From: Spirochaetaceae bacterium
Lineage (GTDB): Bacteria > Spirochaetota > Spirochaetia > DSM-2461
DNA: 64,000 bases
Direction of reading: 5' to 3'
Assembly: GCA_051531975.1 (NCBI GenBank)
Contig: JAOPTT010000006.1
Span: 664,315 to 728,314, forward strand
Part shown: piece after piece, positions 1 to 39,060 of the stretch
Layout: each line of letters opens with the position of its first letter
Numbering within the stretch: position 1 is the stretch's first letter
Position numbers and translations under genes: made by a program
Notes under the pieces: generated by a model
The model's database searches: none
What the model was told of the DNA's origin: nothing
Seen by the model: only the letters and a program-made list of their open reading frames with translations

Positions 1-541
1 AAAAGTAATGAAATGAAAAATTCTGGTTAGTGATAGTAATGATGTCCAAACTTAGCCATAGCTATCAGATTATTTAACATAAAAATGTAACGACCATAAA
101 CACCTAATTATATAGATAACCTAAAATATTCATCTGGTGTGACCAAAACCCAAAACTGTAATCAAAAAAAATAGATAAGTGTAAAAAGGTTCTTGGAAAG
201 TTCGTTTCGCTAAACACGGATATATTGACCTATGATCTGATGCTGTTGGAAATCACAGGATTATGCAGTTGGAACCTACAATTGATATTATTAAAATATC
301 CCGGTGTTATTTAGTATACAGCCAAACTCATATTTGATAATTACTTTATTACCATCAACTGGACTAACAACAGTGCCAATGAGATAAATCTAAATATCAG
401 ATAAGCATTATTCAAGGTTGGTCAAAGATTATTTTTTGATGTGGATAAACTATTAAACATAATTATAGATCTCTGTAGCTATTATCTAAGTAGGTACAGT
501 ATAAGAAATAAGAATCACTCGAGGTGGAGGGTTATTTTAAT

Positions 542-699
542 TGTGAACAAAATTGTGAACAAAAAAAATACAAAACTGTACAAAAGCAGACAAACCCATA
601 TAAATCAAAATGTTTTAAATCCTTTTAATATATAAAGTTATACAAAACAGTACAAAGCTATACAAATAATGATATCAGGTTCGATTCCCTCCACCTCCA
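542..699 (+). repeat. att-like repeat copy 1 (arm doublet, phased heptamers, tmRNA-like 3' core)
   Basis: TGTGAACAA at 542 and 554; RTACAAA-like motifs; TATAAAGTTATACA at 631-644; GGTTCGATTCCCTCCACCTCCA at 678-699. Confidence 0.85.
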
Positions 700-704
700 A
701 AAAC

Positions 705-755
705 AAGACTCTTGTAATTCTATATACAGAAAAGAATTACAAGAGTTTTTCTTTT
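705..755 (+). terminator. Intrinsic terminator-like hairpin immediately after the tmRNA-like core
   Basis: AAGACTCTTGTAATTC...GAATTACAAGAGTTTT followed by a T tract; near-identical copy at 11330-11380. Confidence 0.75.
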
Positions 756-769
756 GATACATATTCAAA

Positions 770-878
770 TGTAGCCAATACTGTAGCCAATACCTAAATA
801 AAGATGGACTGAAACTGTATTTTAAGCAGTCTAGAGGCTAAAAAAAGTATAGGATTCTCAGTTCAACCCTCCACCTCT
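770..878 (+). repeat. Short-type att-like repeat (arm doublet plus degenerate core)
   Basis: TGTAGCCAA at 770 and 782; GTTCAACCCTCCACCTCT at 861-878; homologous to 11394-11502. Confidence 0.7.
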
Positions 879-950
879 GAATTAATATAATTTATATTCT
901 GCTATTTTGTGATCTGCAAATTCAAAAAGTTATAATTTAGTAGAAATAAG

Positions 951-1853
951 TTATTTACACCTAAACCCACATTCTTTATTTATGTTGTTATTATTTAATC
1001 CCATAAAATTGATTGGAGTATTGGGAAACTCTATTAATAGATTATTAAACTTATTAATAAATTCATCATACTCATCTAATGGTTTTATAAGTTCACCTAT
1101 TATATCCAATATTATGATTATTTTTTTTCTTTGCTTAGTGCTATATATTCTTTGCATATTTTTAGTAATTGAAGGTTTTATTGTGAGTGATGAATTCCAA
1201 AGCCTACCGTGATGGGCACAAATATTTCTTATTGTAGTAATCGATTGAACCCAGGACTCTAATAAAAATGGTTTAACTCTGAAATAATTTGCTATATTTT
1301 TTTTTACATCCTTATTTTCTAATGATTTATATATTTTTGACCAGCTCCCAAAAGATATTACCTCAATTAACATCCATGATGCAGGTATTTTGGGTTCAGT
1401 ATATTTATCTATGTAATTTTTTATAAAAATCTCATTGCTTCTTTTAATTTCTCTCCCAATATCTAAAATAAATTTTTCATGATCAAACTGTGCATTTACA
1501 TGTTTTTTTGATAATGGCCAATGAGAATCTTTACTGTTTAATGACATATGTAAATTTAGTTGAGTCCGAAATGCTACTTCTATATGGGTAATTGCATCAA
1601 ATAATATAGTTCTTAACTTATCATCAAAATTATACAGATCAACTACATTTTTAAAATCTGTATTTTTTTTATATTTATGGGTTCTCTTCCTATCTTCAAA
1701 AATTTCATAGTGTAAAGCATATCCAACAAATCTATAATAGCTTACTTTATTTAGAAACTTCGTTGCAAAATCTCTATTGGAGATTACCATACCTCTAGAC
1801 TCTAATATATTAAGTTGTTCTTCAATGTTTGTTGGAGGTGAATTATATTTGAT
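951..1853 (-). CDS. Abi family (AbiF/AbiD-like, Abi_2) HEPN ribonuclease toxin
   Basis: YYRF..Y, LYNFD..LR, IEVAFRT and Rx4H motif RNICAH. Frame is open 21 codons upstream of the ORF-track ATG (1790), giving IKYNSPPTNIEEQLNILESRG with an AGGGGG RBS before ATC at 1853. Confidence 0.85.
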   Translation of the reverse strand: MKYNSPPTNIEEQLNILESRGMVISNRDFATKFLNKVSYYRFVGYALHYEIFEDRKRTHKYKKNTDFKNVVDLYNFDDKLRTILFDAITHIEVAFRTQLNLHMSLNSKDSHWPLSKKHVNAQFDHEKFILDIGREIKRSNEIFIKNYIDKYTEPKIPASWMLIEVISFGSWSKIYKSLENKDVKKNIANYFRVKPFLLESWVQSITTIRNICAHHGRLWNSSLTIKPSITKNMQRIYSTKQRKKIIIILDIIGELIKPLDEYDEFINKFNNLLIEFPNTPINFMGLNNNNINKECGFRCK

Positions 1854-1880
1854 AGATATCCCCCTGTTTCATTGGTTATA

Positions 1881-1930
1881 AAAAAGAAGACCCGTTCTGG
1901 TCCGCATCGTAGAGAGGCGTAACGGGTACT
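1881..1930 (-). ncRNA. Putative abiF-type RNA (antitoxin/leader hairpin) upstream of the Abi gene
   Basis: GC-rich island in AT-rich DNA; minus strand reads ACCCGTT-ACGCCTCTCTACGATGCGGACCAG-AACGGGT-CTTCTTTTTT; position directly 5' of an AbiF-like gene. Confidence 0.65.
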
Positions 1931-2065
1931 GTTAATTTAATCTTAATATGGAGTGTTAAAAATAACAACTGCTTTATATAGATATTTACTCACTATTCAT
2001 GAAATTTTAATGTCAGAATTAATACAACCTTCACTAATTGCACAATCTCTCTTAAATACTACTCA

Positions 2066-2221
2066 TGTAGCCAATATTGTAGCCAAAACCCATACAAACT
2101 GGTGCAAAACAGTACTAAACCATACAAAGTCTATGACGTTTAAGTTGCGACTCTATATAAAGTTATACAAAAGAAAGCAAAACGATACAAAACATATTGG
2201 AGGTTTCGATTCCCTCCACCT
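2066..2221 (+). repeat. att-like repeat copy 2
   Basis: TGTAGCCAA at 2066 and 2078; heptamers at 2092, 2102, 2112, 2122; TGGAGGTTTCGATTCCCTCCACCT ending 2221. Confidence 0.9.
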
Positions 2222-2913
2222 TCATTTCATGCTTATGTAAATCATTATATCGGATATGAATAATCCATTTGTATATGTCCCTGCATAAACTTTAGTATCA
2301 CTAACAAACAGGCAGTCCACATCATTTGTACCAAGTTGTGCAGTTTCGAAGGAATTTGTGGATATATTGTAAATACTTAAACCCTGAAGTGTACCGATAA
2401 AAATATAATTGCCAGAGCCAGTAATATTATTAATCTGGTTATTTGTTAGACCGTCATCCGTAGTAAGGTTGTCCAATTTGTGCCACCATCGTTTGAATAA
2501 AGCAGACCATTGGAGGAAGTTCCAACGTATATATTCTGCCCAGATGCATAAACACATGTGGTAGTCACATTGGAAATAGATGTTCCTGTATATGATGTTA
2601 TATCAAAAGTTTTGGAAAACGAAACATTAGGTAGGTCGGAAGTGAAAGTAATATAGATATCATCAGAAACAGTATTTTTACTGTCTGTAACTTCTATTAA
2701 TAAATCTTTTTCCCATAACCAACTAGGATTTCCATTAGGTACATATCCATCAATGTAGGACAGAACATGCTTTCCATTCCCATCTACTCCATATGACTTA
2801 GGAACCCAATCTAAACCCTTTTTATTAACATGCAGAAGCAGATTGTGGATTGTATCTGAAGCTTCAGTTACATCTTTATAAATTAAATTATCCTTTTTAA
2901 GAGGTTTATTCAT
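2222..2913 (-). pseudogene. Chimeric remnant: phosphotransferase-like N-terminus fused to a frameshifted beta-propeller (BNR-like) fragment
   Basis: First ~75 aa (HNLLLHV..KGLDWVPKSYGVDGNGKHVLSYIDG) resemble APH/kinase-fold N-termini. The rest has YVGTSSNGLLYSNDGGTNWT, and continues in another frame as LTTDDGLTNNQIN..YAGTYTNGLFIS. Confidence 0.55.
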
Positions 2914-2976
2914 ATTTCCACCCTCTAATACTTCGTATTCACTTTAATCCATTTTATCTCCTATTGTAATTAGTAT

Positions 2977-3597
2977 TTAACCAAAGTGATGTATTGAGTA
3001 AGTATTTTCATTTGCAAACAGTTTACCAGTATTACTATCTTTAGCTGAAAAAACATCAGACTGAAATATATTTATATCATGATCTAAAACTTGATATGTG
3101 TTAGTGTCCTTCCAGCCAAAATATAATAACGTTATTTCTGATACCAATACTGAGTTTGGAACGTCGTTATATCTACCATCTTTTAACAAAAAATCTTTTT
3201 CATCATATTCTTTTAATAGCCTGCCAATCCATGGATGATTTTTTATTGCACCAATTATTCCAGTACCTAGTAGTTTATTACCTTCATATCCAGCAAAAGC
3301 TTTAAAGTTCAATAAATCATCAAATGATTTAAGTACTTCAACATCGGTATCAAAATAAATTCCTCCCAATTTATTCAAAACATATAGCCTAACATAGTCA
3401 GTTACATAAGCATATTTTTTAGCATCATATGCCTCCGAAACAAATTTATTTGATCTGATATCAAAGTTTTCTTCATTCCATAAAACAAGTTCATATTCAG
3501 GTAAGTATTTCTTCCAGGATTTTATGCTTTCTTTTGCTTCACTCGATAATTCTCCATTACCAAACCAACAATAATGTATTTTTTTAGATATTGACAT
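2977..3597 (-). CDS. DXD-motif glycosyltransferase (GT32/Och1-like)
   Basis: KKIHYCWFG, SWKKYLPEYE, DYVRLYVL, GGIYFDTDVEV, YSIHHF. Confidence 0.85.
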   Translation of the reverse strand: MSISKKIHYCWFGNGELSSEAKESIKSWKKYLPEYELVLWNEENFDIRSNKFVSEAYDAKKYAYVTDYVRLYVLNKLGGIYFDTDVEVLKSFDDLLNFKAFAGYEGNKLLGTGIIGAIKNHPWIGRLLKEYDEKDFLLKDGRYNDVPNSVLVSEITLLYFGWKDTNTYQVLDHDINIFQSDVFSAKDSNTGKLFANENTYSIHHFG

Positions 3598-3705
3598 ATT
3601 TTAACTCCTTCCATATCAATTTTAGTTTGTAATATTGTTTAACCATTAAATAGTTCAGTTGCACATCATCTTTTACGTAATTTTCACTGAGAATTTTATT
3701 TTCCT

Positions 3706-4601
3706 TTATATAATCTTCTTAATATTATTTTTTAACCGGAAGTGTGTATAGCCAGTAAAAAGTATGAAGAGAACTACCCATACTATCGTACCAGAAAAAC
3801 CTGTTTCTATACCAAACTCAGTTCCTGTTATATTGCTAGAAATAGTTGACTCAGTAATAGCCCCATATAGAGTTGGTCCAATAGTTTTCCCTGAAATATT
3901 AAAAAAGCCTTCAACAACAAAATCATATGCAAAATGCAAAGATATAGGCAAAATTAAGGACTGTGTTTTGTAATATAAAAAACTAAACAACATACCTGCT
4001 ACTAAAATATTTAAAAATAGCACCAATGGATTACCCTGATTCGAATTTGATACAAAAAAATGTACTAAAGAAAATATTGATGCAGAGATCAAGCATGCAT
4101 TAAATGGCTTTTTAAGTATTTGTTCTAAGCGTTTTTGAAAGAACCCTCTAAAAAGGACCTCTTCTCCAACTACTGCAGCCAAACTTGTTACAAAAGCTAG
4201 AGCAACAGGGTGTATTAGATGCTGTGGCGAAAAACGATCAAGCATCCAACCAGAAACTAACAGACATTTATTCATGGTAAAAACAAGATATGCACTTGTC
4301 AGCACAAGAAATGTCCCTAAAAGTCCAACTAAAGAATCCTGAATTATAAACTTATGATCACCAAGAGCGTGAACTTTAAAGTTTTCATTTCTTGCATATC
4401 GGAAATATATAGATACAAATACAATTATGACTCCAATAGAAAAAATCCTAGGTAAAAATCCAGAGAATTCCTCAAATAGTCCAAGTCGAACTAGTGCAAA
4501 TCTAGTAATAAAAGAGACAATAACTATAGAAAGTTGAGTCCCTATAAAATTACTATAAGCCAGATTATATGAAGAAGAATGTTTTTAAGTTTATTAAGCA
4601 T
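3706..4601 (-). pseudogene. CPBP/CAAX intramembrane protease with an apparent N-terminal frameshift
   Basis: EEVLFRG, FSLVH and ISLHFAYD motifs; frame is open to ~4560; RBS-preceded ATG at 4601 is one base out of frame. Confidence 0.65.
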
Positions 4602-4674
4602 TTTATTCCTTTTGAAAAATTTAAATCTTACTGTATATAACACGCAAATACTGTGTAAATGTTACTTAAAATTA

Positions 4675-5214
4675 TTACCAGTATTCAGGTTTATTTATAG
4701 CATCAACACAGAATGAATTATCAGTAATAGATTGGATTTTATCACTTACCAAAGACTGTGCTAACCAACCTTCTGGATACTCAAGTTTTAAAGGAGCTTT
4801 CACAATTTTTTCAGATATTTTATTGTACCCAACTTTTGAGTAAAAATTAATATCACCATAAGTAAAAACCTGTTCTACATAATTTCCTTTTAAATCCTTG
4901 TGACCAAAATTAATCAATTTTTGACCTATTCCTTTTTTTTGATAATCTGAATGGATAGCCACTGGAGCTAATAAAAATGTATTAATTTTACACTCTTCAA
5001 ACTTCAACCTGGAAAAGAGAATACAGCCTATAATTTTTTTATCATCAATAGCGATATAAACATGTAGATCATTTTTATCTGTTTTAGTCATTAATTCAAA
5101 AGCTAAGTTTCCTATTAACATTCCTTCTTCAACACCTTCAGAATCTGAAAATGTCTTGATAAATAACTCTTGTATTTTCTCTATGTTTTCTGATTTATAA
5201 TTTGAAAATTCCAT
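4675..5214 (-). CDS. GNAT family N-acetyltransferase (YhbS-like)
   Basis: LLAPVAIHSDYQKKGIGQKLI, YGDINFYSKVGY, PEGWLAQSL. Confidence 0.85.
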   Translation of the reverse strand: MEFSNYKSENIEKIQELFIKTFSDSEGVEEGMLIGNLAFELMTKTDKNDLHVYIAIDDKKIIGCILFSRLKFEECKINTFLLAPVAIHSDYQKKGIGQKLINFGHKDLKGNYVEQVFTYGDINFYSKVGYNKISEKIVKAPLKLEYPEGWLAQSLVSDKIQSITDNSFCVDAINKPEYW

Positions 5215-5277
5215 TCGATATCCTTCTTATATTATTTAATTATTGAAAATGATAACTTATACTCATTCCATGAAGAT

Positions 5278-6058
5278 CTACTTTTGTGAAAAGATCCAGT
5301 CTGCTACCTTTTTATTAACAATGTCTGGATTTTCCCATAAAGGGAATCCCCCTGCATTAGGAATAATAATACTTTCAACCATTTCATTTTTATCTAATAA
5401 GTTCCTCATTCCATGAAATTCAGTCATATCGTAATTACCATTATATGCTAATATCGGTAATTTTAATTTTTTTAATTGATTAATGATATCCATAGTATCT
5501 TTAGTTTTTTTTTCAGATAACCAAGGTTTCCCACTAAATGATTGAAGAATTTTAAGATGATCTTCTGATCTTGTTTCTTTTGGGTTACGTCGCATATATT
5601 TTTGGGTTACGTCGCATATATTCAAACCATTCCGAATGTGTAAACCAATTATTAATAGCCTCATCAATTCCTTTCTCAAAAATTATAGACCTGGCTCTAT
5701 TTATATTTTTATTAAATCCAGGAATTACGACACCCTCGAATATAAACAGTCTTATACTGAATACTTTTTTTAAATATAAATTAAGACCAATTGCTGTACT
5801 TGTATGAGTCCCCCAATATATGAAATCATCAATTATTAGATATTTTAATAATTCTATAATATCTTCAGTGTATTCTTCTATTCCAAATGGACCATCATGT
5901 TCTGAATTACCATGCCCTCTTAGATCTAATGTTAAGCAGTTGAAACTATCCCTAAAAAACTCAATTTGTTTGTTAAATATGGCCAGATTCTGTGTAAAAC
6001 CGTGTACAAACACAATTGTCTGTTTTTGGTTATTATTTTCAAAATTATAATTTATCAA
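5278..6058 (-). pseudogene. Alpha/beta hydrolase split by a 22-bp tandem duplication
   Basis: VFVHGFTQN and DLRGHGNS motifs; TTTTGGGTTACGTCGCATATAT duplicated at 5578-5621; removing one copy gives a 759-bp single ORF. Confidence 0.85.
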
Positions 6059-6307
6059 TGAGTCCTCATAAATGTAAAGTTTACATTTTACTTCTTTAAT
6101 ATTAGATATTTTATTACTATTTTTTAATAAGGAAAACCATTTTTTATTGGTTTAAATAGTATATGCATAATAAGATCTTATATATCTTCTTAAAACAGTA
6201 TCATTTTTGGATTGATTCACATTTGATATTTGGTTGTCCATGCAACAATTGACATATCCTGTAATAAGGGCTAATTTAGTTATACAGACAACTAAAAAGG
6301 TTTATAA

Positions 6308-6748
6308 ATGATAAAAGTAAATGATTCAATATATTTTAATATTTCACGGGTGGCTCTTTTACTAAGGAGAGATTTTCTGCAAAATCTTAAAGAATTTAAT
6401 ATTACTCCTGAGCAGTGGTCAATAATGGCTTTTCTTAATGAAAAACAAAAGCCAATATCACAAAAGTCGATAGTAGAACATTTACTAAAAGATAAACATG
6501 CTGTTTCAAAAATGATTAATAAAATGGTAAAAAAAGAGTGGATAATAAAAGAAGCTGATATTAATGATAGCCGAGTAACACTGATATCTTTGACTAAAAA
6601 GGGAACTGAAGATATGCATACAATTGGAAATGTTCTATCCAAGTCTCAGCATAATAGAGAATATAATATGTTTCCTAATGAAGAGAAGAAGATGATTCTT
6701 AACTTTTTAAAACAAATTAGGATATTTTTTAATGATATAAAGGAGTAA
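6308..6748 (+). CDS. MarR family transcriptional regulator
   Basis: ITPEQWSIM, DKHAVSKMINKMVKKEWI, DSRVTLISLTKKG. Confidence 0.85.
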   Translation: MIKVNDSIYFNISRVALLLRRDFLQNLKEFNITPEQWSIMAFLNEKQKPISQKSIVEHLLKDKHAVSKMINKMVKKEWIIKEADINDSRVTLISLTKKGTEDMHTIGNVLSKSQHNREYNMFPNEEKKMILNFLKQIRIFFNDIKE

Positions 6749-6750
6749 TT

Positions 6751-7044
6751 ATGAATCCACTAAAAACAGTACAGGATCTAGATCCGGAATTAACTAAGAT
6801 AATGGAAGATTCCAGATTATTGGCATTTACGGAAGGATCATTAGATTTAAAAACTAAATATCTAATTGGTTTGTCCATAGATGCAACGAAAGGTACTCCT
6901 GAGGGAGTTAGAAGTTTAGCAATACAGGCATTAAAAAACGGAGCAACAAAAGATGAAATCAAAGAAGTAATAAGAATTGTATATCTAATTAATGGTGTTA
7001 GCAGCATGTATCCAGTATCAATTGGTCTCAAAGATTTAATATAG
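6751..7044 (+). CDS. Carboxymuconolactone decarboxylase/AhpD-like protein
   Basis: GSLDLKTKYLIGLSIDA, ALKNGATKDEIKEVI; 2 bp downstream of marR. Confidence 0.8.
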   Translation: MNPLKTVQDLDPELTKIMEDSRLLAFTEGSLDLKTKYLIGLSIDATKGTPEGVRSLAIQALKNGATKDEIKEVIRIVYLINGVSSMYPVSIGLKDLI

Positions 7045-7152
7045 GAATATTTTAAATAATTATTAACTAATTAAATTTCTAAAAAAAATGTTTCCAAGGG
7101 TAACATAATCCCTGGGAACACATCTATATCAATTTGAGAACTGGTAGAATAA

Positions 7153-8508
7153 TTACAGAATTCGATTATGTTTAATAACATTTTTATAATACTCTGCACT
7201 CAATTTAGGAGTTCTTTTTTGATTTTCAAAATTAACATAAACCAGACCAAAACGTTTGGTATACCCTTCAGCCCATTCAAAATTATCTAAAAAGCTCCAA
7301 ACAAAATATCCTTTTAATGGATACCCTTCTTCTATTGCCCTTGATGCACCTATAAAATGATTACGAAGATAAAAAATACGGTCTGTATCTAAAACCTCTC
7401 CATCTTTATTTAGTTTATCATTACAGGCACTACCACTTTCTGTAACATATATACTTTTAACATCCCATAGCTCATTAACATAGCGTGTACTCCAGTAGAT
7501 AGTTTCAGGACCAACCTTAATCCATGGAAGATCCATTGAAGGATGCGATGGTGCAAAGTCAACAACATTATACCCTTTAGCAGAATTCTTATCTGCTCTT
7601 ATATAGGTTGGATAATACATATTGATGCCTAAGTAATCTATAGGAGCATTTATTAACTTCATCTCATCCAGTGTATAATCAGGAGCATTATCCCCTTCTT
7701 CTTCAAGATACTTTTTAGAATATGAACCCTCTAGAAGAGGAGAAAGGAATGATCCATTTATATCATGAAAAGCTTGTTTGGCAGCAGCAATATGCTCTTC
7801 TGTTTCAAAAATTGGAACACAATTATATGGATTATCAGAAAGTCCAACCTTAATATCACCTTTTGCATTTTCCCGTAGTGCTTTAAGAGCATAGCCATGC
7901 CCCAAAAGTCCATTATGAAAAACCTGGTTTACTTTAGCTCTTGAGAGTGTTTTACCAGGAGCAAAGACTCCATCTCGATAACCTAACTCTGCAATGCATA
8001 TATAATCATTTAGTGTATAATAATTTTTTAGTCTATCTGATAACCGTTCAGATATGATACCAGCATAGTCACCAAAATATTTTGATGTCTCTTTTGATTC
8101 CCATCCACCATATTGATCTTCTAATACCTGTGGCAGATCCCAATGAAATAGTGTTGCACAGGGTTCTATGTTAGCTTCCAGAAGAGAATCTACAAGGCGG
8201 CTATAATAATCTATTCCCTTTTCATTAAATTCTCCTTTCCCATTGGGAAAGACTCGGGGCCAAGATATAGAGAATCTATAAGATTTTAATCCCATATTCT
8301 TCATTAAAACAATATCATCTTTGTAGAGATTATATTGATCACAGCTTATATCACCATTATGATCACTTTTAATTTTCCCTGGTATATGAGAGAAAGTATC
8401 CCAGATAGATTTACCCCTACCATCAATATTAACAGCACCCTCAACTTGATATGCTGACGTAGAACATCCCCATAAAAAATCTTTTGGCATTTTATATGAC
8501 TTACTCAT
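7153..8508 (-). CDS. GH1 beta-glucosidase
   Basis: FLWGCSTSAYQVEG, YRFSISWPR, TLFHWDLPQ, YVTESG nucleophile, DNFEWAEGY; acid/base position reads TLND rather than TLNE. Confidence 0.9.
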   Translation of the reverse strand: MSKSYKMPKDFLWGCSTSAYQVEGAVNIDGRGKSIWDTFSHIPGKIKSDHNGDISCDQYNLYKDDIVLMKNMGLKSYRFSISWPRVFPNGKGEFNEKGIDYYSRLVDSLLEANIEPCATLFHWDLPQVLEDQYGGWESKETSKYFGDYAGIISERLSDRLKNYYTLNDYICIAELGYRDGVFAPGKTLSRAKVNQVFHNGLLGHGYALKALRENAKGDIKVGLSDNPYNCVPIFETEEHIAAAKQAFHDINGSFLSPLLEGSYSKKYLEEEGDNAPDYTLDEMKLINAPIDYLGINMYYPTYIRADKNSAKGYNVVDFAPSHPSMDLPWIKVGPETIYWSTRYVNELWDVKSIYVTESGSACNDKLNKDGEVLDTDRIFYLRNHFIGASRAIEEGYPLKGYFVWSFLDNFEWAEGYTKRFGLVYVNFENQKRTPKLSAEYYKNVIKHNRIL

Positions 8509-9017
8509 ATAGACTCCTATTTAGTATTGTAATCATAGATTTTTATTATTTAGATGTAAATATTAAATGGATCATAATTTATTTACTGCCATCGATATTC
8601 ATTATCAATGAGTTATACTGTCCAATTTAAGAAATATATATAAGTGATTAATATGAAACTTTATACTTTTGTTTATCGAGCCATTGATGTCCATATACAA
8701 TAAAACCTTCTCTACCATTGAATCTATCAACCCCAAAAATTGAGCCTTGATTTTTATCTAAAAATCGGAGCTTTAATATAAGCTGTTCATCTTTCCTTTT
8801 AAGATTTATTAATTTAATATGATTTTGAAGTACTTCATGAAAAACTATTGGATTAGTCTTTTCTGATTTTTAGTGTTTAAGATATCTTAATAATTACCTA
8901 AAACGGATTTAATATTGTTGTTCATAATATAGTCCAGGGTTTCAATTGAAAACTCAGCTCTTGTTATCATAAACAATAAGTCTAGACATCAACATTTCCT
9001 AAAAAATTTATTTGAAA

Positions 9018-9479
9018 TTAATTAATTGGAATAAAGATATCAATTTCAGATTTACTACTATTCCAATTAAAACGATTATCATATCTTTCATAATGTACCA
9101 TAGGTCTATCTAAGTTTAGCTTAAAACTATTTTTTGGCAATATGTCTTTATATATATCAAAATATGTAAATTTTAACTTATTCATGTCTCCACAATGAAC
9201 AAACTTAACGTATTTATTTTTAGGTATAACATATTGCTTTAAATTTACAGAATCTATAATTGGTACTGAAGGCATATAAAAATAACTATTATTCTTTTTG
9301 AATGTTAATCCGTATTTTTCCCAATTATGATCAATACGCCTTTTTATAGTATTAAACATACTATTAACTTTTTCCCAATGGTTAGATATGATTCTTTGAT
9401 TTTCTGTTTGAGACTTAGTAAGTAAAACAGGTAAACCTTCTACTTCTTTTTTATCTATTTCTAATATTTCCCAATTCAT
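9018..9479 (-). CDS. GyrI-like effector-binding protein
   Basis: IPKNKYVKFVHCG, YERYDNRF..SEIDIFIPI. Confidence 0.75.
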   Translation of the reverse strand: MNWEILEIDKKEVEGLPVLLTKSQTENQRIISNHWEKVNSMFNTIKRRIDHNWEKYGLTFKKNNSYFYMPSVPIIDSVNLKQYVIPKNKYVKFVHCGDMNKLKFTYFDIYKDILPKNSFKLNLDRPMVHYERYDNRFNWNSSKSEIDIFIPIN

Positions 9480-9522
9480 TTACTAAAGTTCCTACCAACT
9501 GATAATAAAACAATCGTTTATT

Positions 9523-10008
9523 TTAATCAAATTCACCAATTATCAGCCCACTGTTATGTGCAATATAGACAGTTTCTCCATCACAAAACACTCCATTTGC
9601 TGAAATATTTGGGAACGACGTATACCTGTCTACTTCAACATCTTGCCAATTTAATCCATCATCGGCCGAAATCTACAGTTTCCCACCATATTTAACACAT
9701 ACCAAGTATGTTCCATCATTGGCAAACCCCATTATTGAACCACCACCAAGAGTATAATAGTCATCAACAAAAGTCTCTCCTGAATCTGTAGATCTAGAAT
9801 AGTAGGTGTCGATAGCTGCAACAACAGTACTTCCTGAAACATATAATAATTTCATATCTGGAGTATAATCCGAATAAGCAACTACTAAAGTGTCAGCATT
9901 TGAATAATCCAGGTTTAAAGTGGTTAAAATATGATCACCAGCAACATACAAGGTTGATGTATAAATAATTAATCGTATAAGAACTTTGGTATAGATTTTT
10001 ACAATCAC
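9523..10008 (-). pseudogene. Beta-propeller/BNR-repeat protein C-terminal remnant with internal TAG
   Basis: SRSTDSGETF; after the TAG at 9673-9675 the frame continues ISADDGLNWQD...GLIIGEFD to TAA at 9523. Confidence 0.55.
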
Positions 10009-10157
10009 CTTTAATTATCTAAGGGATTTCATCCCTTTATTAGTTTGAAATTCACCACAATATATCTATCTTGTTTATCTCTGACTATTAATATATAGAA
10101 ATCTTTAATCTAATTGACCAGCCACTATAAAGACTATAAAGACTATAAAATTAGAGT

Positions 10158-10316
10158 ATGATTAAGAAATCTTTTGAAGAGAAAGTTGAATTTATTAAAA
10201 AGAGTAGACTTAAAAATTACAAAGAGAGTTTAAGGCTTGAAGGTCTAAATCCCTCTGTTCACCTCCATGGAAAAACTCGAGCAGAGATAATATCATATTA
10301 TACACACAAGAAATGA
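10158..10316 (+). CDS. YhfG/FicA-like antitoxin, 52 aa (absent from the ORF track)
   Basis: MIKKSFEEKVEFIKKSRLKNYKESLRLEGLNPSVHLHGKTRAEIISYYTHKK; SxxxEG inhibitory motif; ATGA overlap with fic start. Confidence 0.8.
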   Translation: MIKKSFEEKVEFIKKSRLKNYKESLRLEGLNPSVHLHGKTRAEIISYYTHKK

Positions 10317-10905
10317 AATCTATAAAGTATGGTACTGATGAAGATCCATATAGCTATAAAGATACTGACATATTAATTAATAAACTGGATATAAGATCTA
10401 ATATCACATTAGAAAATATTGAAGAAGAGATTTCTACCTTAGCTGTAGGTGAAATTGATTTTGCAACTCCTCCCTATAATTCTAAATATTGGCAGAACAT
10501 TCATGAAATACTATTTAAGGACTTATATAATTGGGCTGGAGAGTTTCGAACAGTTCATATTACTAAAGGTTCAACAGTCTTTTCAATCCTCTATATATAG
10601 ATCAGGAGTTAAATAGGATTTTTACTGACTTAAGTAGAAATAAATATTTTGTAGATTTACCAGTTGCACTATTAGTTACGAACATAGCATAATTATATAT
10701 TGAGTTGAATATAATTCATCCTTTTAGAGAAGGGAATGGACGTTCTCAGCGCATATTATTTGATCATATGTTAGCAAACTGTGGATATAAAATTGATTGG
10801 GGTAAAATATCAAAAGATCACTGGTTAGAAGCTAATATTTGCAGAGTAGACCTTAACTACAAGCCAATAGAAAATATTATGTCGGATTGTTTAGTAGAGT
10901 TTTAA
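10313..10905 (+). pseudogene. fic: Fic (FicT-like) AMPylating toxin, inactivated
   Basis: DPYSYKDTDILINKL, DLYNWAGEFRTV, HPFREGNGRSQR; frameshift near 10583 and in-frame TAA at 10690-10692. Confidence 0.85.
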
Positions 10906-11164
10906 TTATTTGGTGTATAAAATTACATTTCTAATTTCCTAGGGAGTTAATTATCCTAGCTCTATCCACAAACCCCTAACATATACTTCTAATGAAACCA
11001 AAACAAATGCATTTAATGTTCTAGTTGCTATCACATTCAATTTGTAAACTCCTAATAATATTATGCAATATGAATATCAACAATAATATATCAATTTGCG
11101 ATATTATTTCTAATTATTTTATTAAATCTTTCTATTTCTTAGTGTCCTTATGTTATCTCTTTTG

Positions 11165-11323
11165 TGTGACCAAAACTGTGACCAATTGAAATACAAAGCC
11201 GTACTAAACCATACAAAGCGATACAAAGAGTCGACGACCTAAGTTACTAAAGGGTATAAAGTTATACAAAGAGAGACAAAACCGTACAAATAAAAGACGA
11301 GGATTCGATTCCCTCCACCTCCA
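11165..11323 (+). repeat. att-like repeat copy 3
   Basis: TGTGACCAA at 11165 and 11177; heptamers at 11191, 11201, 11211, 11221 and 11264, 11274, 11284; GACGAGGATTCGATTCCCTCCACCTCCA ending 11323. Confidence 0.9.
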
Positions 11324-11329
11324 AAAACT

Positions 11330-11380
11330 AGACTCTTGTAATTCTATATATACAAAAGAATTACAAGAGTTTTTCTTTTT
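11330..11380 (+). terminator. Intrinsic terminator-like hairpin after the core
   Basis: AGACTCTTGTAATTCT...AGAATTACAAGAGTTT plus T tract. Confidence 0.75.
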
Positions 11381-11393
11381 ATAAATATTTCAA

Positions 11394-11502
11394 TGTAGCC
11401 AGTATGTAGCCAATACGAATAGAAAATGGTCGTTGAAACAGCATTTAAAGCACTCTAGAAGCTTAAAAAAGTACAATATTCCCAGTGTAACCCTCCACCT
11501 CT
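11394..11502 (+). repeat. Short-type att-like repeat (arm doublet plus degenerate core)
   Basis: TGTAGCCAG at 11394 and TGTAGCCAA at 11405; GTGTAACCCTCCACCTCT at 11485-11502. Confidence 0.7.
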
Positions 11503-11548
11503 TGCTATGTAAAAGCAGTTAGTATATTAACTGCCTACAGAATCTATC

Positions 11549-11800
11549 TATGATGGACCATATTGTCTAGACTAAATGTCAGCCACAAATCTTAATTTGT
11601 TTTTCTTTATTATATAAATTATAAAAATATGCTTCATCTGGTGTTCTTTTCCTAAGGGAATTATGTGGTCTTCTTAAGTTGTATTTATCAATATATCTAT
11701 TAATTCCTTGAATCGCTTCTATTGGATTTTCATAATCTTTTAAATAAACTTCTCCATATTTTAATGTTTTCCAGAATCTTTCGATTGTGATACTTTCTGA
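11549..11800 (-). mobile_element. IS3-family remnant (C-terminus of DDE transposase and probable right inverted repeat)
   Basis: ITIERFWKTLKYGEVYLKDY...YNLRRPHNSL..RTPDEAY; minus-strand GTCTAGACAATATGGTCCATCATA downstream resembles IS3-family ends. Confidence 0.75.
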
Positions 11801-12013
11801 TTCAGAAGTATCTGGGAAAAATAATCCTAAACAGCGGAATATAATTTTTACAATACTGATAGGCATATCTCTAAATACAACATCAAACATTAGGATAGCC
11901 ATTGGAGTTCCTTGATTAGATATAAACATCATATATAACTAGCTAATAAAAACTTCCTATAACATATAAAATTTAGAATTGTAATAAAGCATTATCCACT
12001 ATATTATAAGTAT

Positions 12014-12331
12014 ATGAATCAGGATAAAAAATTAGAAAAAATCAAGGACATAATAGTCGAAACTGTACATCCAGATAAAATTATACTTTTTGGATCACGA
12101 GCCAATGGTACAAATAAAGACGACAGTGACTATGATATCTTTATACTAAAAAATGGTATTACTAATGAAAGAACCATAATTGGTGATGTCAATGTTGCCC
12201 TATTTAGGAATCATATTATTGATGATATTGATATTGTCGCAGCTAATCCTGAAAAATTTGAAAAACACAAAAACAATGACTATTTAGTTTATAAAGATAT
12301 TTATAACCAGGGAATAACTATTTATGGATAA
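12014..12331 (+). CDS. Minimal nucleotidyltransferase (MNT) antitoxin
   Basis: IILFGSRANGTNKDDSDYDIF (GSx10DxD); overlaps the HEPN gene. Confidence 0.85.
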   Translation: MNQDKKLEKIKDIIVETVHPDKIILFGSRANGTNKDDSDYDIFILKNGITNERTIIGDVNVALFRNHIIDDIDIVAANPEKFEKHKNNDYLVYKDIYNQGITIYG

Positions 12332-12704
12332 GAGCATTGATCCAAAAGAATGGTTGAACAGAGCTTATGGTTGTTTGCTAAGGGCGAGAAAACCTATTGA
12401 AGAAGGTATGTACTATGAAGACTTCTGCTATGACTGCCAGCAAGCAGCTGAAAAAGCTCTTAAAGCCCTAATCGTTAGATTAGGTCTAGATCTACATAGA
12501 ACCCACTCTTTTAGAAAACTTCTTAACGAATTAACAAAAAGAATAATTATTCCTGAATCAATATTTGATGTTCTTAAAATTGAAGTATATGCAGTAACAA
12601 CAAGGTACCCAGATGATTTTATTGAAGTATCTGAAAATGAATATAGAGAAGCATTAGAAATTGCTCAAAGAGTATATGACTGGACTTCAGAAAATATAAA
12701 ATAA
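12324..12704 (+). CDS. HEPN domain protein (MNT-associated)
   Basis: CQQAAEKALKALI, RTHSFRKLL, AVTTRYPD. Confidence 0.85.
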   Translation: MDKSIDPKEWLNRAYGCLLRARKPIEEGMYYEDFCYDCQQAAEKALKALIVRLGLDLHRTHSFRKLLNELTKRIIIPESIFDVLKIEVYAVTTRYPDDFIEVSENEYREALEIAQRVYDWTSENIK

Positions 12705-12935
12705 ACTTCTATAAAATCTTACCTTTAGATGAATATAACCATTATTATTGTTTAAACCTTGTATTAGATAAATACTAAAAAGTTACGAATTCCGTAAATT
12801 TACTAAATTCGAATCACTTCAGGTGTAGAGTTACGTTTCATTGTAACCAAAATTGGATAGCCACAACCACTCTATTGTTCATTATGATGCAGTATTGTTT
12901 CCTAGAAAGCGAAAGTACTATGTAATCTTGTCAAA

Positions 12936-13094
12936 TGTAGCCAATATTGTAGCCAAAACCCAGACAAACTGATACAAAACAGTACTAAACTATACAAAGT
13001 CTAAGACATCTAAGTTACTAATCTGTATAAAGTTATACAAAATAAAGCAAAGCGATACGAAAGCTATTGGAGGTTTCGATTCCCTCCACCTCCA
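12936..13094 (+). repeat. att-like repeat copy 4
   Basis: TGTAGCCAATATTGTAGCCAAAACC...TATAAAGTTATACAAA...TGGAGGTTTCGATTCCCTCCACCTCCA. Confidence 0.9.
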
Positions 13095-13096
13095 TT

Positions 13097-13432
13097 TTAA
13101 GACTTATATAAATCTTTTATTGAAGTGATTAGCGTTGGAATTGTTCTTGAAACAGTTGTCCAAATTATTTCATAATCAACAACATCATAACCATGAATTA
13201 ATCGATCCCTCATACCAGCCATAGCTTTCCATGGAATACTTTTATTTGATTCTCTAAAATCATCAGGGATTCGCTTACTAGCTTCACCAATAATCTCCAA
13301 ACATCTTATTACTGCAAATTGAGTTTTTTCATCGTATTTGAACTCATCTTTTGATAGTCCCTTTATAAACTCTTGGGTTAATTCCATAGATTTTAAAATA
13401 TCGTTAAGATAGACCTTAAAATCTTTTTTCAC
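13097..13432 (-). CDS. DUF86/HepT-like HEPN ribonuclease toxin
   Basis: AVIRCLEIIGEA, IPWKAMAGMRDRLIHGY (Rx4HxY). Confidence 0.9.
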   Translation of the reverse strand: MKKDFKVYLNDILKSMELTQEFIKGLSKDEFKYDEKTQFAVIRCLEIIGEASKRIPDDFRESNKSIPWKAMAGMRDRLIHGYDVVDYEIIWTTVSRTIPTLITSIKDLYKS

Positions 13433-13725
13433 AGATATTGAACCTCAGATAATATAGATTCATTAATTATAGGTTTGAGTGAAGATTTTAGGACGAGATC
13501 AACTGTAGTATTTAGATCTTCAGTAAGTTCCTGCTCTAATGTAATAAGATCAAAAAGATCCATTTTCGAGGGCCTAGACAAATCAATGAGTATATCAACA
13601 TCACTGTTAGCATTTTCTTCACCTCTTACATAAGATCCAAAGATACCTATTTCACTAATACCTGATTCTAGTAATCTCTTTTTCTTTTTAAGAAGTGTAT
13701 CTTTGATGATGTTTAAGTCTGTCAT
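13429..13725 (-). CDS. MntA-like minimal nucleotidyltransferase antitoxin
   Basis: IGIFGSYVRGEENANSDVDILI, VDLV; 4-bp overlap with the DUF86 gene. Confidence 0.9.
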   Translation of the reverse strand: MTDLNIIKDTLLKKKKRLLESGISEIGIFGSYVRGEENANSDVDILIDLSRPSKMDLFDLITLEQELTEDLNTTVDLVLKSSLKPIINESILSEVQYL

Positions 13726-13853
13726 ATATCCCTCTTACTAATATTATACTACTGCTAATTTTATTTAAATAGAAGTAATTAAAATTTTACTTGTCTATTC
13801 AAACCTAATATTGAATTATCTACTGCAGATGTCATTAGTGCACATACTGTAAA

Positions 13854-14010
13854 TGTAGCCAATATTGTAGCCAAAACCAATTCAAAATGGTACAAAACAG
13901 TACTAAACTATACAAAGTCTATGGCTTCTAAATTACGACTCTATATAAAGTTATACAAAATAAAGCAAAGACATACGAAAGATATTGGAGGTTTCGATTC
14001 CCTCCACCTC
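13854..14010 (+). repeat. att-like repeat copy 5
   Basis: TGTAGCCAA at 13854 and 13866; same heptamer array; TGGAGGTTTCGATTCCCTCCACCTC. Confidence 0.9.
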
Positions 14011-14043
14011 TAAAGATGTACTTTTTTTATTTAAACAATCTAA

Positions 14044-14140
14044 GTAGCCAAAACAAATTCAAAGGCATACAAAACCGTACTAAGCGATACAAAAATAAAG
14101 GCACCTACCCCTACACAGTATATAAAGTCATACAAAACCA
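14044..14140 (+). repeat. Degenerate att-like repeat lacking the core
   Basis: GTAGCCAAAAC, ATACAAA/GTACTAA/ATACAAA at 10-bp spacing, TATAAAGTCATACAAA. Confidence 0.7.
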
Positions 14141-16991: not shown

Positions 16992-17275
16992 AATCTGATC
17001 CTCCCAGTTAAATTGTAATCTGGTGAATCTAAAATGCAATGTTTTTTATTCTGATACTCGTTTGACGCACCATTATACTCATAAGTAACTTCAATTTAGT
17101 TTGACACTCAAGATACTTAAATTCAAAATAATTACTAATTATATTTTGAGAATCAAGATAAATAAGAAGTTCACGTGGTAGTAAAAAATTTATATAAGTC
17201 TAAATATTAATTAAAAATTTTATATATTAGGTGTGAATATTATTTTGAATATTAAATTAAGTCATCAATTAAGAT

Positions 17276-17386
17276 AATTAACTTTGGTATTGATCGGGTA
17301 ACAGTCGTCTATATTATCTCATAATCAATAACATCATAACCGTAAGTTAGTCTATATCTCATCCCAGCCATTTATATCCAAGGTAT
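17276..17386 (-). pseudogene. Remnant of a DUF86/HepT toxin gene
   Basis: Translates IPWI*MAGMRYRLTYGYDVIDYEII*TTVTRSIPKLI, versus IPWKAMAGMRDRLIHGYDVVDYEIIWTTVSRTIPTLI in 13097-13432. Confidence 0.8.
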
Positions 17387-17402
17387 AAAACTGTTCAATA
17401 AA

Positions 17403-34490: not shown

Positions 34491-35465
34491 TTATTTTGAT
34501 ACCTCAATAATCAGGTTACCCCTCTTATCTCCAGCTTCTACATATTTATGTGCTTCCGCTATATTTTCAAGTTTAATTACTTTATCTATAAATACTTTTA
34601 TTATCCCACCTTCAACAAGCCCTTTTATATATTCAAGATCAGAAATTGAGTGATCTGATGTATCAAAATGAATTTTTTTATTACTAAACAGATTAATTAA
34701 TCGACCTAAAAATTTGTGATAAAATTTTGGATTTGCAATTACATAATTCCCATTATCATATAATATATCTATGGATTTTTTAAATGGACTTTTACCTACT
34801 ACATCGAAGATAAGATCATATTTATTATCCTCTGCAGTAAAATCCTCATTTGTATAGTCAATAACTCTATCAGCACCTAAAGAAGTTAACATTTCAAATT
34901 TACTTTTTTTATCAACGACTGTAACACTAGCACCCTGGTGTTTAGCAATCTGTAGAGCAATAGTTCCAATGCTTCCTCCTGCCCCATTTATTAAAACCTT
35001 ATCATTTTTATTAATATTAAATTTCTTTAGGTAATGTCTAGCTTCTAACCCACCAATTGATATAACTGCAGCCTCCTGGAATGTTAAACATTGAGGTTTT
35101 AAAATAAAACAACCCTTATCTGAAACAGAAACATACTCAGCATAACCACCCATCTTTAGTCCAGTTGCTCCAAACAGTTCATCACCAACCTTAAACTTTG
35201 TTACTTTTTTTCCTACTTCTTCTATAACCCCAGATATCTCCTGTCCAAGAATTATGTTTCTTGGTTTAAAAGGTCCAAAAAACATCCGGATCAATAATTT
35301 TAAGATGAAGGGAAACTTTAAACTTCGCATTTCACAATCACCAGCATTTACCGATGTATTATATACTTTTATTAATATTTCATTATCTTTAGGTTCTGGT
35401 TTTTGTATATTTTGTAATTCCAAAAAATCTGCGCTTCCATATTTATTCCAAATTATTGCTCTCAT
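34491..35465 (-). CDS. NAD(P)-dependent MDR-family oxidoreductase
   Basis: PEPKDNEILIKV, GGYAEY, INGAGGSIG, LGADRVIDY. Confidence 0.9.
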   Translation of the reverse strand: MRAIIWNKYGSADFLELQNIQKPEPKDNEILIKVYNTSVNAGDCEMRSLKFPFILKLLIRMFFGPFKPRNIILGQEISGVIEEVGKKVTKFKVGDELFGATGLKMGGYAEYVSVSDKGCFILKPQCLTFQEAAVISIGGLEARHYLKKFNINKNDKVLINGAGGSIGTIALQIAKHQGASVTVVDKKSKFEMLTSLGADRVIDYTNEDFTAEDNKYDLIFDVVGKSPFKKSIDILYDNGNYVIANPKFYHKFLGRLINLFSNKKIHFDTSDHSISDLEYIKGLVEGGIIKVFIDKVIKLENIAEAHKYVEAGDKRGNLIIEVSK

Positions 35466-35693
35466 ATTTTTTTCCTTAATTTATCTCATTTATAGTATCA
35501 CTTTACAATCTAGTGGTATTTTCTCTATTTAACCAGATATTTTAATTTATATTAAATCTAAATCCTAACAATATTGAATATTTCGCATAATAGAAATGTT
35601 GTAGATATAAAGATAGTCACCTCTACCAGATATTAAAACTGTTCCTGATAGAGATGATAATTGAGTATAAACAAGAAAATTATCAGATACAGA

Positions 35694-37118
35694 TTAACAA
35701 ATCTTAATCGTTTTCATACCTGTTAAAACTCCGAATTTTTCAATCTTTGAGCTTATATGACCAGTACCTATTGCGAGGTGATGTGCAGGACCTGCATAAC
35801 TCCACTGATTCATAAATTCCTCTGCTCCTAAAGAAAATCGATAACGGCTATTTGTATTTCCTATTGCCAGAACTGGCCCGGTAATACATTCCCCTTCTGC
35901 TACAAGAAGAAAAAGTCCATCTGAACCCTGAACAATAGCAAGAAGAGTAACAGGACCGGGTTTTACAGACATTTGAATAGAGAGACCTTTCCCAGGTTTT
36001 CCATGATATACAGATAACGGTACAAGATCTACAGAACCTTCAGCAATAGCAAAATGTGCAGGACCATCATGTCCTAACATAACTATATCATCATCAAAGT
36101 CCATGCCGTAAAACTCGCTGAATGAACCTCCAGCACCAAAACTATCAAGAATCTTCATTGCTTGCGCATTTTTAACTTCACACTCTCCAGCAACTGGAAT
36201 GTTCCGTCCAGTAAGCAGTGTATTCCCGGCTATAACAGATGTAACAATATCTTCATATTCACTACCTGACTGCCCTTCGTAATAATAAGCCATTGAACCG
36301 ATATTATTTTCTGTAACCAGACGATCAAGTGCAACAGAAGTTTTTGCTGCTCTAATTACTTCATCTATTTCACACTCTTTAGAAATATTAAAAGTATGCT
36401 CAAATTCCTGGATTTTATTATCCACCTGCTCATCTGTAACTTCCCGTCTATACTTTGCCAGTTCACACATTTCAAGTATCTCGATATGAGTTCCTAGAAC
36501 AGTTGATTGTTGAGCAAGATCTGTATAAACATCAAGCATTCCACCATAATAATGTCCAAGAATTCCTAAACGATTATTTTTCATAATTCGAAATACTTTA
36601 GCAGCCTGGACCCATTCCTGAATTGTATTCTCTGTTTTCTTCTGGCCTAGATACCCTGTAACAATTTTATAAGGTATATTACCACGATTAAATATTCCAG
36701 CAATTTCAGGTACTGAACACGCCTGACAATTTGCCAACCATTTTCCTGTCATTAGACCACGGTCACCCAGATTATTAAAAGCTTCATAATCAAGTGAAGA
36801 TTCAGGTTGAACATTTAAAAGTATGACAGGGACTCCCGCTTCCTGAGCTACAGGCAATACCGTTGAAGATAGTGCATAAGTAGTTATATAACAAAAAAGC
36901 AGTTCAATTCCGGATTCTCGAAACATGAGCGCTACTTCCTTAGCTTTTTCCGGGCTGTCTACTAAACCTGCAGAAATAACTTCTGATCCATCTATATTAA
37001 GTACATTTTCAATTTGTGAGAGATAACCTTTTAGCTCATCTTCCAAGCCTTCAAACTGAGGCCAGTAAGTATTTAGTCCAATACCAAATACTCCTATTTT
37101 AACCTTAGCTTTACTCAT
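35694..37118 (-). CDS. L-arabinose/L-fucose isomerase family protein
   Basis: GECEVKNA, SFSEFY, LGHDGPAH, IGNTNSRYRF, GPAHHLAIG. Confidence 0.85.
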   Translation of the reverse strand: MSKAKVKIGVFGIGLNTYWPQFEGLEDELKGYLSQIENVLNIDGSEVISAGLVDSPEKAKEVALMFRESGIELLFCYITTYALSSTVLPVAQEAGVPVILLNVQPESSLDYEAFNNLGDRGLMTGKWLANCQACSVPEIAGIFNRGNIPYKIVTGYLGQKKTENTIQEWVQAAKVFRIMKNNRLGILGHYYGGMLDVYTDLAQQSTVLGTHIEILEMCELAKYRREVTDEQVDNKIQEFEHTFNISKECEIDEVIRAAKTSVALDRLVTENNIGSMAYYYEGQSGSEYEDIVTSVIAGNTLLTGRNIPVAGECEVKNAQAMKILDSFGAGGSFSEFYGMDFDDDIVMLGHDGPAHFAIAEGSVDLVPLSVYHGKPGKGLSIQMSVKPGPVTLLAIVQGSDGLFLLVAEGECITGPVLAIGNTNSRYRFSLGAEEFMNQWSYAGPAHHLAIGTGHISSKIEKFGVLTGMKTIKIC

Positions 37119-38125: not shown

Positions 38126-39060
38126 CTGTTCCCCCTTTTCCCAAGTTTATTGTTAAGAGCGCTTACACTCAGGGCTGCAATCAGAATCAATCCTGTAACT
38201 AGCCTTTGATAAAAATCTGGAACTCCTAAAAGATTTAATCCATTTTTAATAATTCCTAACATAATAGCCGCAACGAGGGTTCCCCAGAGGTTTCCTTTTC
38301 CACCTGTCAGTGCAGTTCCACCAAGAATGGTTGCTGTGATAACTTCCAATTCAAAACCCTGCCCAAGCCGGCCATTACCTGTTAATAGTTGAGATGTTAA
38401 AATGGTACCTGAGAGCATAGTTGTAACAGAGGTCATTATAAAAATACCTGTTATAACTAGATTCACTGGAATACCCGAAATATGGGCAGCCTCATCTCCA
38501 GATCCAATACCACGAACCCAAACTCCAAAACGTGTCCACCGATAAATAACTGAAGCAATAATATATAATCCAAGCATCAACAAAACTGGAACAGGAATAA
38601 TACCAACCTTACCACCAGAGAAAACTTTAATATCAAGATGACTATAAATAGTAGCATCATGCCCTTGAGTATATAAAAGAGCTAAACCACGGTATATTGT
38701 CAGTGTTGCAAGGGTGGCTACAAAGGTCTGAATTTTAAGTTTCGTAATAATAAAACCATTAAACATACCAAGTAGTATTCCAGCTACTAAAAGAATTCCA
38801 AGTGAAGGAATAAGCCCATATTTTGGGATATTTAGACCAAGAATACAGGTTGCTAGGGCCATTTGAGATCCTATTGAAAGATCAAATCCCCCTGCAGTTA
38901 TAGCAAAGGTCATCCCCACACCAGCAATTGCAACCATAGATACCTGAGAAAGTAGATTTAAGATATTCTGTTGTGAAAGAATATTTGGCGTTAATATGGC
39001 AAAAATTAGCAGTGTACCTAACGCTAAAATATAGATGCCGTAACGTTCCCATATTTTCAT
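38122..39060 (-). CDS. Monosaccharide ABC permease
   Basis: GFDLSIGS, FVATLAT, ELEVITATILGGTALTGGKG. Confidence 0.9.
   Translation of the reverse strand: MKIWERYGIYILALGTLLIFAILTPNILSQQNILNLLSQVSMVAIAGVGMTFAITAGGFDLSIGSQMALATCILGLNIPKYGLIPSLGILLVAGILLGMFNGFIITKLKIQTFVATLATLTIYRGLALLYTQGHDATIYSHLDIKVFSGGKVGIIPVPVLLMLGLYIIASVIYRWTRFGVWVRGIGSGDEAAHISGIPVNLVITGIFIMTSVTTMLSGTILTSQLLTGNGRLGQGFELEVITATILGGTALTGGKGNLWGTLVAAIMLGIIKNGLNLLGVPDFYQRLVTGLILIAALSVSALNNKLGKRGNR

Follow-up and report, generated by a model that had tools for sequence, protein, structure and literature searches.

A tandem array of integrase-less units behind ssrA in a spirochaete genome, best filed as a CIME/microCIME accretion array

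Cis-mobilizable elements (CIMEs) are deletion derivatives that keep their attachment (att) sites; classical CIMEs measure 1.2–13 kb and gene-less microCIMEs 130–220 bp, and in streptococcal tandems the most decayed units lie farthest from the target gene (PMC7563491). A path of integration, decay and accretion has been described for integrative and conjugative elements, integrative and mobilizable elements and CIMEs (PMC5704250). In Dehalococcoides, islands stand in tandem within 100 kb downstream of ssrA, the gene for transfer-messenger RNA (tmRNA), bounded by ssrA 3′ copies cut in the T-loop, and 15 islands without an integration module have been proposed to be cis-mobilisable (PMC3146451). 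Here we describe a locus of related architecture in a Spirochaetaceae bacterium (assembly GCA_051531975.1; 5.46 Mb in 29 contigs, 98% complete): a tandem array of units delimited by direct repeats of the ssrA 3′ end, within a window of 64,000 nucleotides (C6:664315-728314; C, G and L numbers are our handles for contigs, genomes and loci). The array is best filed as a CIME/microCIME accretion array, which is a known mode of piling up accessory genes.

The genome has a single tmRNA gene according to ARAGORN, an intact ssrA at C6:591850-592230, 72.8 kb upstream of the first repeat, R1 (Table 1). On its 3′ side follow a hairpin with a T-run, a direct TGTGAACA arm pair and a tyrosine integrase gene (C6:592333-593457, 374 aa), whose product scores above the PF00589 cut-off and has all of the catalytic residues R, K, HxxR and Y, with a Q at the usual H/W position that is common to two ssrA-linked relatives. 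The original prediction, made from the letters of the window, had called the array integrase-less and had proposed looking upstream for an intact ssrA that ends as the repeats do and for the cognate tyrosine integrase; both were found, and the label does not hold for the locus as a whole, a complete integrase sitting at the ssrA side of the front island. Because its arm pair equals the pair beside the integrase, R1 is, judged by sequence, the attR that closes this 72.8-kb island.

All eight previously recognised copies of the repeat were recovered, each on the + strand and with measured gaps of 1187, about 8940, 1433 and 759 bp, and their reading as tmRNA-derived att sites of an arm-plus-core type was borne out: the attR has an arm pair, TACAAA-like hexamers at 10-bp steps (offsets 27, 37, 47, 57 and 90-120) and the ssrA 3′ end. 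In lambda-type systems integrase occupies the arms, and an excisionase-type factor the phased repeats; by analogy the arms here may bind the integrase and the hexamers a directionality factor. Six exact copies of the 17-mer core are present in the genome, in ssrA and the five repeats, all on contig C6 (0.0001 expected by chance); a slightly degenerate core pattern has a match in 113 of 401 genomes of the class, five times in the source genome and at most three times in any other. The repeat is not scattered through the genome: a profile of it, run over the 29 contigs, matched C6 only (the five repeats, the remnant, ssrA, weakly the outer part of T-s1, and an inverted copy behind the integrase). 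R2, R4 and R5 are 0.89–0.90 identical to each other; R1 and R3 are 0.65–0.69 identical to the rest. No tRNA, tmRNA or Rfam family was found inside the window.

From core to core the units measure 180, 1345, 9099, 180, 1591 and 918 bp, and a core-less remnant follows. All five attR cores have an intact T-loop, the overlap being unchanged in 5/5 repeats, and the units stand in tandem distal to the integrase-bearing element at the target, in the order ssrA, integrase, 72.8-kb island, units. They hold neither integrase nor transfer genes, only an insertion sequence (IS) fragment. That no recombinase lies between the repeats, and that the units are non-autonomous, was confirmed: a profile of 14 family integrases, run over 2090 six-frame segments of island and array, gave a best E of 0.085, and the sole related match between the repeats is the rve_3 transposase fragment.

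Table 1. Coordinates of the att sites, left ends and cargo of the array (positions in the window; strand +, - or unstranded)
Feature	Position	Strand	Basis or description
Last 541 bp of the 72.8-kb integrase-bearing island	1..541	.	left end outside the window
Inverted right half-core, 8 bp before the R1 arms	521..533	-	also before the attR in G001 and G045
R1, attR of the 72.8-kb island (by sequence)	542..699	+	TGTGAACA arm pair, phased hexamers, core from 680; 0.85 identical to the G001 attR
T-s1, integrase-less left end / 180-bp gene-less unit	700..878	+	hairpin 707-747, TGTAGCCA arm pair 770-789, half-core 867-877
AbiD/Abi_2 protein, unit 2 cargo	951..1790	-	PF07751 E 2e-53; PADLOC AbiD E 2e-62
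R2, attR, TGTAGCCA type	2066..2224	+	repeat comparison
Unit 3 cargo	2225..11164	.	glycosyltransferase, CAAX protease, GNAT, hydrolase, MarR, CMD, GH1, GyrI-like, frameshifted Fic-like, other fragments
5′ half of attL hairpin, truncated, left end of unit 3	2229..2248	+	matrix p=0.00045, after R2
R3, attR, TGTGACCA type	11165..11323	+	repeat comparison
T-s2, second integrase-less left end	11324..11502	+	0.82 identical to T-s1; hairpin 11331-11371, arms 11394-11412, half-core 11491-11501
IS transposase fragment (rve_3)	11579..11932	-	Pfam match
Nucleotidyltransferase + HEPN gene pair (toxin-antitoxin-like), unit 4 cargo	12014..12704	+	PF18765/PF01909 and PF05168
R4, attR, TGTAGCCA type	12936..13094	+	repeat comparison
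Nucleotidyltransferase + HepT-like gene pair (toxin-antitoxin-like), unit 5 cargo	13097..13725	-	PF01909 and PF01934
Probable 5′ half of attL hairpin, left end of unit 5	13100..13119	+	matrix p=0.005 (0.045 corrected for 9 junctions); overlaps the last hepT codons
R5, attR, TGTAGCCA type	13854..14012	+	repeat comparison
attR remnant without core, most distal	14044..14140	+	nhmmer E 4e-9

In keeping att sites while lacking recombination and transfer genes, the units resemble the streptococcal CIMEs and microCIMEs (PMC7563491, PMC5704250), and with their tandems the array shares the unit sizes, the order from intact proximal to decayed distal, and a tyrosine integrase on the proximal element (PMC7563491). 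It differs in that six units and a remnant stand behind one island, where the streptococcal composites have two or three, in its target, ssrA in a spirochaete, and in a 918-bp unit that falls below the published range (PMC7563491). The front island, unlike those of CIMEs, has no recognised conjugation genes, and different cargo lies between ends that are close homologues, two on the left and three on the right. Tandem ssrA islands, T-loop-cut ssrA 3′ copies as borders and integrase-less members are also found in Dehalococcoides, but there a serine recombinase, DsiB, goes with a short conserved motif and the cargo is rdhA, whereas here a tyrosine integrase goes with a 160-bp arm-bearing attR and the cargo is of Abi and toxin-antitoxin type (PMC3146451). 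No serine recombinase of the DsiB type lies at attL, the PF00239 matches of the genome being only on C1 and C10. As in the tDNA islands catalogued by Islander and TIGER, integration by a tyrosine integrase leaves the target gene whole and a 3′ fragment displaced (PMC4383910, PMC12424338); the array does not consist of autonomous tandem islands of that type, its first member alone having an integrase. Since no island without an integrase is admitted by these tools, and islands below 2 kb are dropped from the TIGER/Islander database (PMC4383910, PMC12424338), the units of the array would not be listed.

Decay by deletion is suggested by the truncated attL hairpins with which two units appear to start and by integrase stubs in relatives. 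Left arms are complete in two of the four cargo units; units 3 and 5 have broken left ends without them, and several genes inside the 9-kb unit 3 are split. Hairpins were scored at nine junctions with a position weight matrix built from nine family hairpins, one of which (G016) is mis-anchored and two of which score low in leave-one-out, the likeness having first been noticed by eye; the three full hairpins reach p=0.00075. A degenerate hairpin after T-s2, also suggested by eye, failed the matrix test (p=0.58). In related genomes the left end consists of core, hairpin, arm pair and integrase start, and the right end of arm pair, about 120 bp and core; the attL layout recurs after ssrA in G001, G008, G016, G018, G041, G045 and G106, and the attR layout in G001, G018, G045 and G234. 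The ssrA island of G045 measures 5.9 kb and matches only 23 integrase codons, G106 has an intact island and then a second, 9-kb island with 30 codons matched, and L068 combines a broken integrase with a 95-bp unit. G010 has a gene-less unit of 162 bp, and in G018 one junction has hairpin and arms, the stretch examined there matching no integrase.

We hold it moderately probable that the array arose by tandem accretion at the ssrA 3′ end and is composed of decayed CIME-like units whose cores a family integrase still cuts. One family of tyrosine-integrase elements would insert at the ssrA T-loop, each newcomer restoring ssrA, pushing older residents outward and leaving an attR at every boundary; the older residents would lose their integrase-bearing left part by deletion, giving CIME-like units of 0.9–9.1 kb and gene-less micro-units of 180 bp. 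We infer that recombination continues, because the att sites of the units stay intact and a resident or incoming integrase of the family could thus cut at any core, so that units might be lost, travel with the front island or be stacked anew, mostly in cis, and that the Abi and toxin-antitoxin cargo probably aids the persistence of the units.

Several observations weigh against accretion followed by decay. The family integrase profile found no integrase stub in any unit of the array, and at the junctions after s1, s2 (the outer parts of T-s1 and T-s2) and R5 the matrix found no hairpin remnant; nor did it find one after the s of the congener G001. R2, R4 and R5, 89–90% alike, carry unrelated cargo, and their arms are of the TGTAGCCA type, those of the resident integrase being TGTGAACA. 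A search of the 98%-complete genome for a relaxase (PF03432) and a coupling protein (PF02534) gave no match. New adjacencies at the core, found in an independent sample (below), speak against pure decay. Finally, T-s1 and T-s2 differ at 0/28 stem, 0/16 arm and 0/11 half-core positions and at 32/124 elsewhere (Fisher p=3e-6; with G001 included, where one arm is missing, the contrast weakens to p=0.011), a motif-only conservation that is not predicted by passive decay.

The outer parts of these two blocks had been taken for shortened repeats; in fact nothing but the arm pair and the right half-core is common to them and the repeats, and each is preceded by a hairpin that had gone unlisted. Each T-s is a 180-bp block of hairpin, TGTAGCCA pair, about 75 bp and right half-core. 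The hairpins lie at 707-747 and 11331-11371, and the stretch 700-760 has folding z-scores of -5.3 and -6.6. The same arm pair stands 14–15 bp before the integrase start in G018 and G045; no integrase follows T-s.

Such blocks suggest a second explanation, possible but in our view doubtful, in which a dedicated non-autonomous mini-element has T-s as its left end and an R2-type attR as its right end; this 1.5–1.8-kb vehicle would be excised and inserted in trans by the ssrA integrase and would swap defence-type cargo at the conserved half-core. Equally tentative is its extension to a long-lived vehicle family, with a selected integrase-less left end (terminator hairpin, arm pair, second half-core) and a full attR, which would move in trans and exchange anti-phage and toxin-antitoxin cargo at the second half-core. 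Since the half-core is without the T-loop overlap, T-s and the cargo that follows it are probably one unit, and 700-2224 and 11324-13094 would be units with both ends complete and homologous around different cargo; units 3 and 5, without left arms, do not fit. The confinement of differences to positions outside motifs, as seen in T-s (0/55 vs 32/124), extends to R2, R4 and R5, where 6/84 motif columns vary as against 19/75 spacer columns (p=0.002), although the hexamer positions were defined from the repeats themselves and the conservation could date from integrase-bearing parents. Arm sequences differ among close integrases, with mixed pairs in G016 and L068, which makes cross-recognition plausible. 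Against a vehicle stand the rarity of T-s, which is present in 2/38 family genomes (the arm part of R4 occurs in the same two), the single arm of the T-s and the missing attR core in G001, and homologues of the cargo pairs elsewhere that have no repeat-profile match (on C10 of the source genome, G000, and at 244923 and 250560 in G001). No parent element for the T-s units was found.

Adjacencies favouring such vehicles come from runs X2, X3 and X5, which represent one sediment sample of another study and whose contigs, aligned at 85% likeness, probably derive from related organisms. They contain the T-s-Abi unit at 97.5–98.7% identity, together with a 90% variant. An R2-type attR is joined directly to T-s (2221 to 11324) in two runs, the shorter side being 140 letters, and this joint falls at the core, between repeats only 67% alike. 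X3 record 15 has an R3-type attR with T joined to s-Abi. Other joints link an R5-type end with T (side length not given) and an R3-type core with a HepT-like gene (intervening sequence not known); one contig has a HepT-nucleotidyltransferase-R5 unit with a shortened attR. These contigs, from one sample and short at the repeats, show other stacking orders, not excision, and accretion in front of a resident unit also yields a different upstream neighbour. Cover over most of unit 3 and over 14.4–17.4 kb is slight in the three runs and was not used as evidence. In run X1, which may have the same source as the window and so is not independent, long pieces equal the window, and among the joints listed there was no repeat joint fitting a circle, in contigs that drop rare forms.

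The earlier model, of one- or two-gene cassettes captured or excised in trans by one integrase, stands in part: the truncated attL hairpins, split genes, integrase stubs in relatives and the congener's same first unit fit CIMEs, while the motif conservation and the new adjacencies keep the idea alive for the two units with complete ends. A third explanation, that the att sites are dead scars whose near-identical copies arose by duplication or homologous recombination of direct repeats after one ancestral deletion, draws on the split genes and IS fragment in the units, on remnants without a core in both G000 and G001, on a first unit that two species have in common and on the RecA-mediated recombination reported for SXT/R391 tandem arrays (PMC5812530), but is improbable, given that the cargoes are not duplicates, that differences avoid the motifs, that the T-loop overlap is unchanged throughout and that the new adjacency lies at a core between dissimilar repeats.

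Integron cassette arrays have one proximal tyrosine recombinase, grow from one end and consist of 1-2-gene units with toxin-antitoxin and Abi cargo, and in these respects the array resembles them. Unlike integrons it has no adjacent IntI, no attC boxes and no single-strand hairpin, its sites being of arm-plus-core type. That the repeats are not attC hairpins, as had been proposed, was upheld: they have no inverted R boxes, and the folding z-scores of R1-R5, on both strands and against mononucleotide shuffles, lie between -0.8 and +2.0. Cargo genes lie on both strands and not in one orientation, with 82 promoter-like sites vs 90 in shuffles. The sole TIGR02249 match above cut-off is on contig C8, and the C6 integrase has no match. 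The C8 locus is a true integron (IntI at C8:31744-32685, array at 34561-43306), with direct repeats of 110–137 bp at about 34561, 35960, 37190 and 38721 and a partial one at 43262. Our literature search, which left subscription journals mostly outside, found no paper on an integron-like tmRNA cassette system without an integrase.

On the likeliest reading, this spirochaete locus is a CIME/microCIME array of unusual length whose parts can be told apart clearly, and island finders that require an integrase skip arrays of its kind. It also offers a compact system for asking whether integrase-less ssrA units move only in cis or singly in trans too, a question that the locus makes directly testable, having a single integrase, two matched mini-units and, among its five attR sites, three arm types. 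If cargo is exchanged in trans, integrons would not be the only way in which defence genes are stored up as small cassettes, and the vehicle reading, if true, would make the array an integron-like store on double-stranded lambda-type sites.

The congener G001 has ssrA, a frameshifted integrase (80% identical), an 81-kb island, an R1-type attR, a one-arm T-s and the same Abi gene, in a unit that ends in a core-less R2-type end. Conserved gene order, named earlier as a counter-test, is thus found in part, as the same first unit at the same place. The block R1-T-s-Abi-R2 is 77.9% identical between the two genomes over 1629 bp and the shared island core 76–79%, and both co-inheritance with the island and vertical descent would fit. 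The flanks are not syntenic, so that an empty-site comparison with matched flanks is not available. Behind the last att remnant of G001 lies a toxin-antitoxin-rich stretch (L024:13330-15501, L048:115-1287) with two homologues of the unit 4 pair and no repeat-profile match.

More widely, a TGTAGCCA-type pair 112–140 bp before the T-loop occurs at 9 genome loci, titled Nocardia, Longispora, Acidimicrobiales, Eremiobacteraeota and Spirochaetaceae, and at 12 metagenome loci, and the attR design is therefore widespread; one locus titled Spirochaetaceae (L059) has an attR of the same family. Each of these loci is a single match, and no second array of this exact repeat was found in scans that may omit the source genome and near relatives. 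The pattern TACRAA-N13-core had no match in viral or metagenome contigs, the R2-type arm pattern none in viral contigs, where 0/4 integrase candidates were confirmed, and window positions 500-2300 matched no plasmid.

The front island, from the 42 of its open reading frames (ORFs) that were scanned, carries type I restriction-modification, ArdC, AAA_24, RadC, SSB and several defence-like genes. Four similar-looking genes stand in tandem at C6:630157-632070, the two scanned ones matching RadC/JAB PF04002. A candidate directionality factor, ORF C6:632433-632798, has atlas matches to unnamed clusters at 0.90–0.91 and to DUF3853 at 0.89 and is a lead only; the same search with ORF C6:633703-635442 was uninformative. 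The remaining PF00589 matches in the genome are two proteins on C17, which look Xer-like on a reading of their sequences, the integron integrase on C8 and a fragment on C3. Sixty bp past the integrase stop, at C6:593517-593624, lies an inverted degenerate attR-like copy with phased hexamers and without the ssrA core; the repeat profile found none at the corresponding place in G001. An inverted half-core ahead of attR, as before R1, also occurs in G001 and G045, and not before R2-R5 nor in G018 or G234; none of the three explanations accounts for it. The copy in G045 carries the G of that genome's ssrA core and so tracks the local core.

In unit 3, a small ORF and the frameshifted Fic-like gene at 10161-10905 resemble an antitoxin-Fic pair, the first part matching PADLOC PDC-S04 (E 8e-30); the Pfam scan covered the first fragment of the Fic-like gene. 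A second, broken hepT-like fragment lies behind pntAB at 17244-17387, 72% like 13095-13238 and with no att repeat nearby. A segment of roughly 720 bp occurs twice at 52522-54843; its copies, 1597 bp apart and 73–79% alike, are probably paralogous genes. An Eremiobacteraeota locus without a match to this integrase family (L054:10001-17160) has a tRNA-like core in four copies, at spacings of 2.3, 3.0 and 1.7 kb; the 150-bp repeats upstream of its second and third copies are 78% alike, and its units carry unrelated genes.

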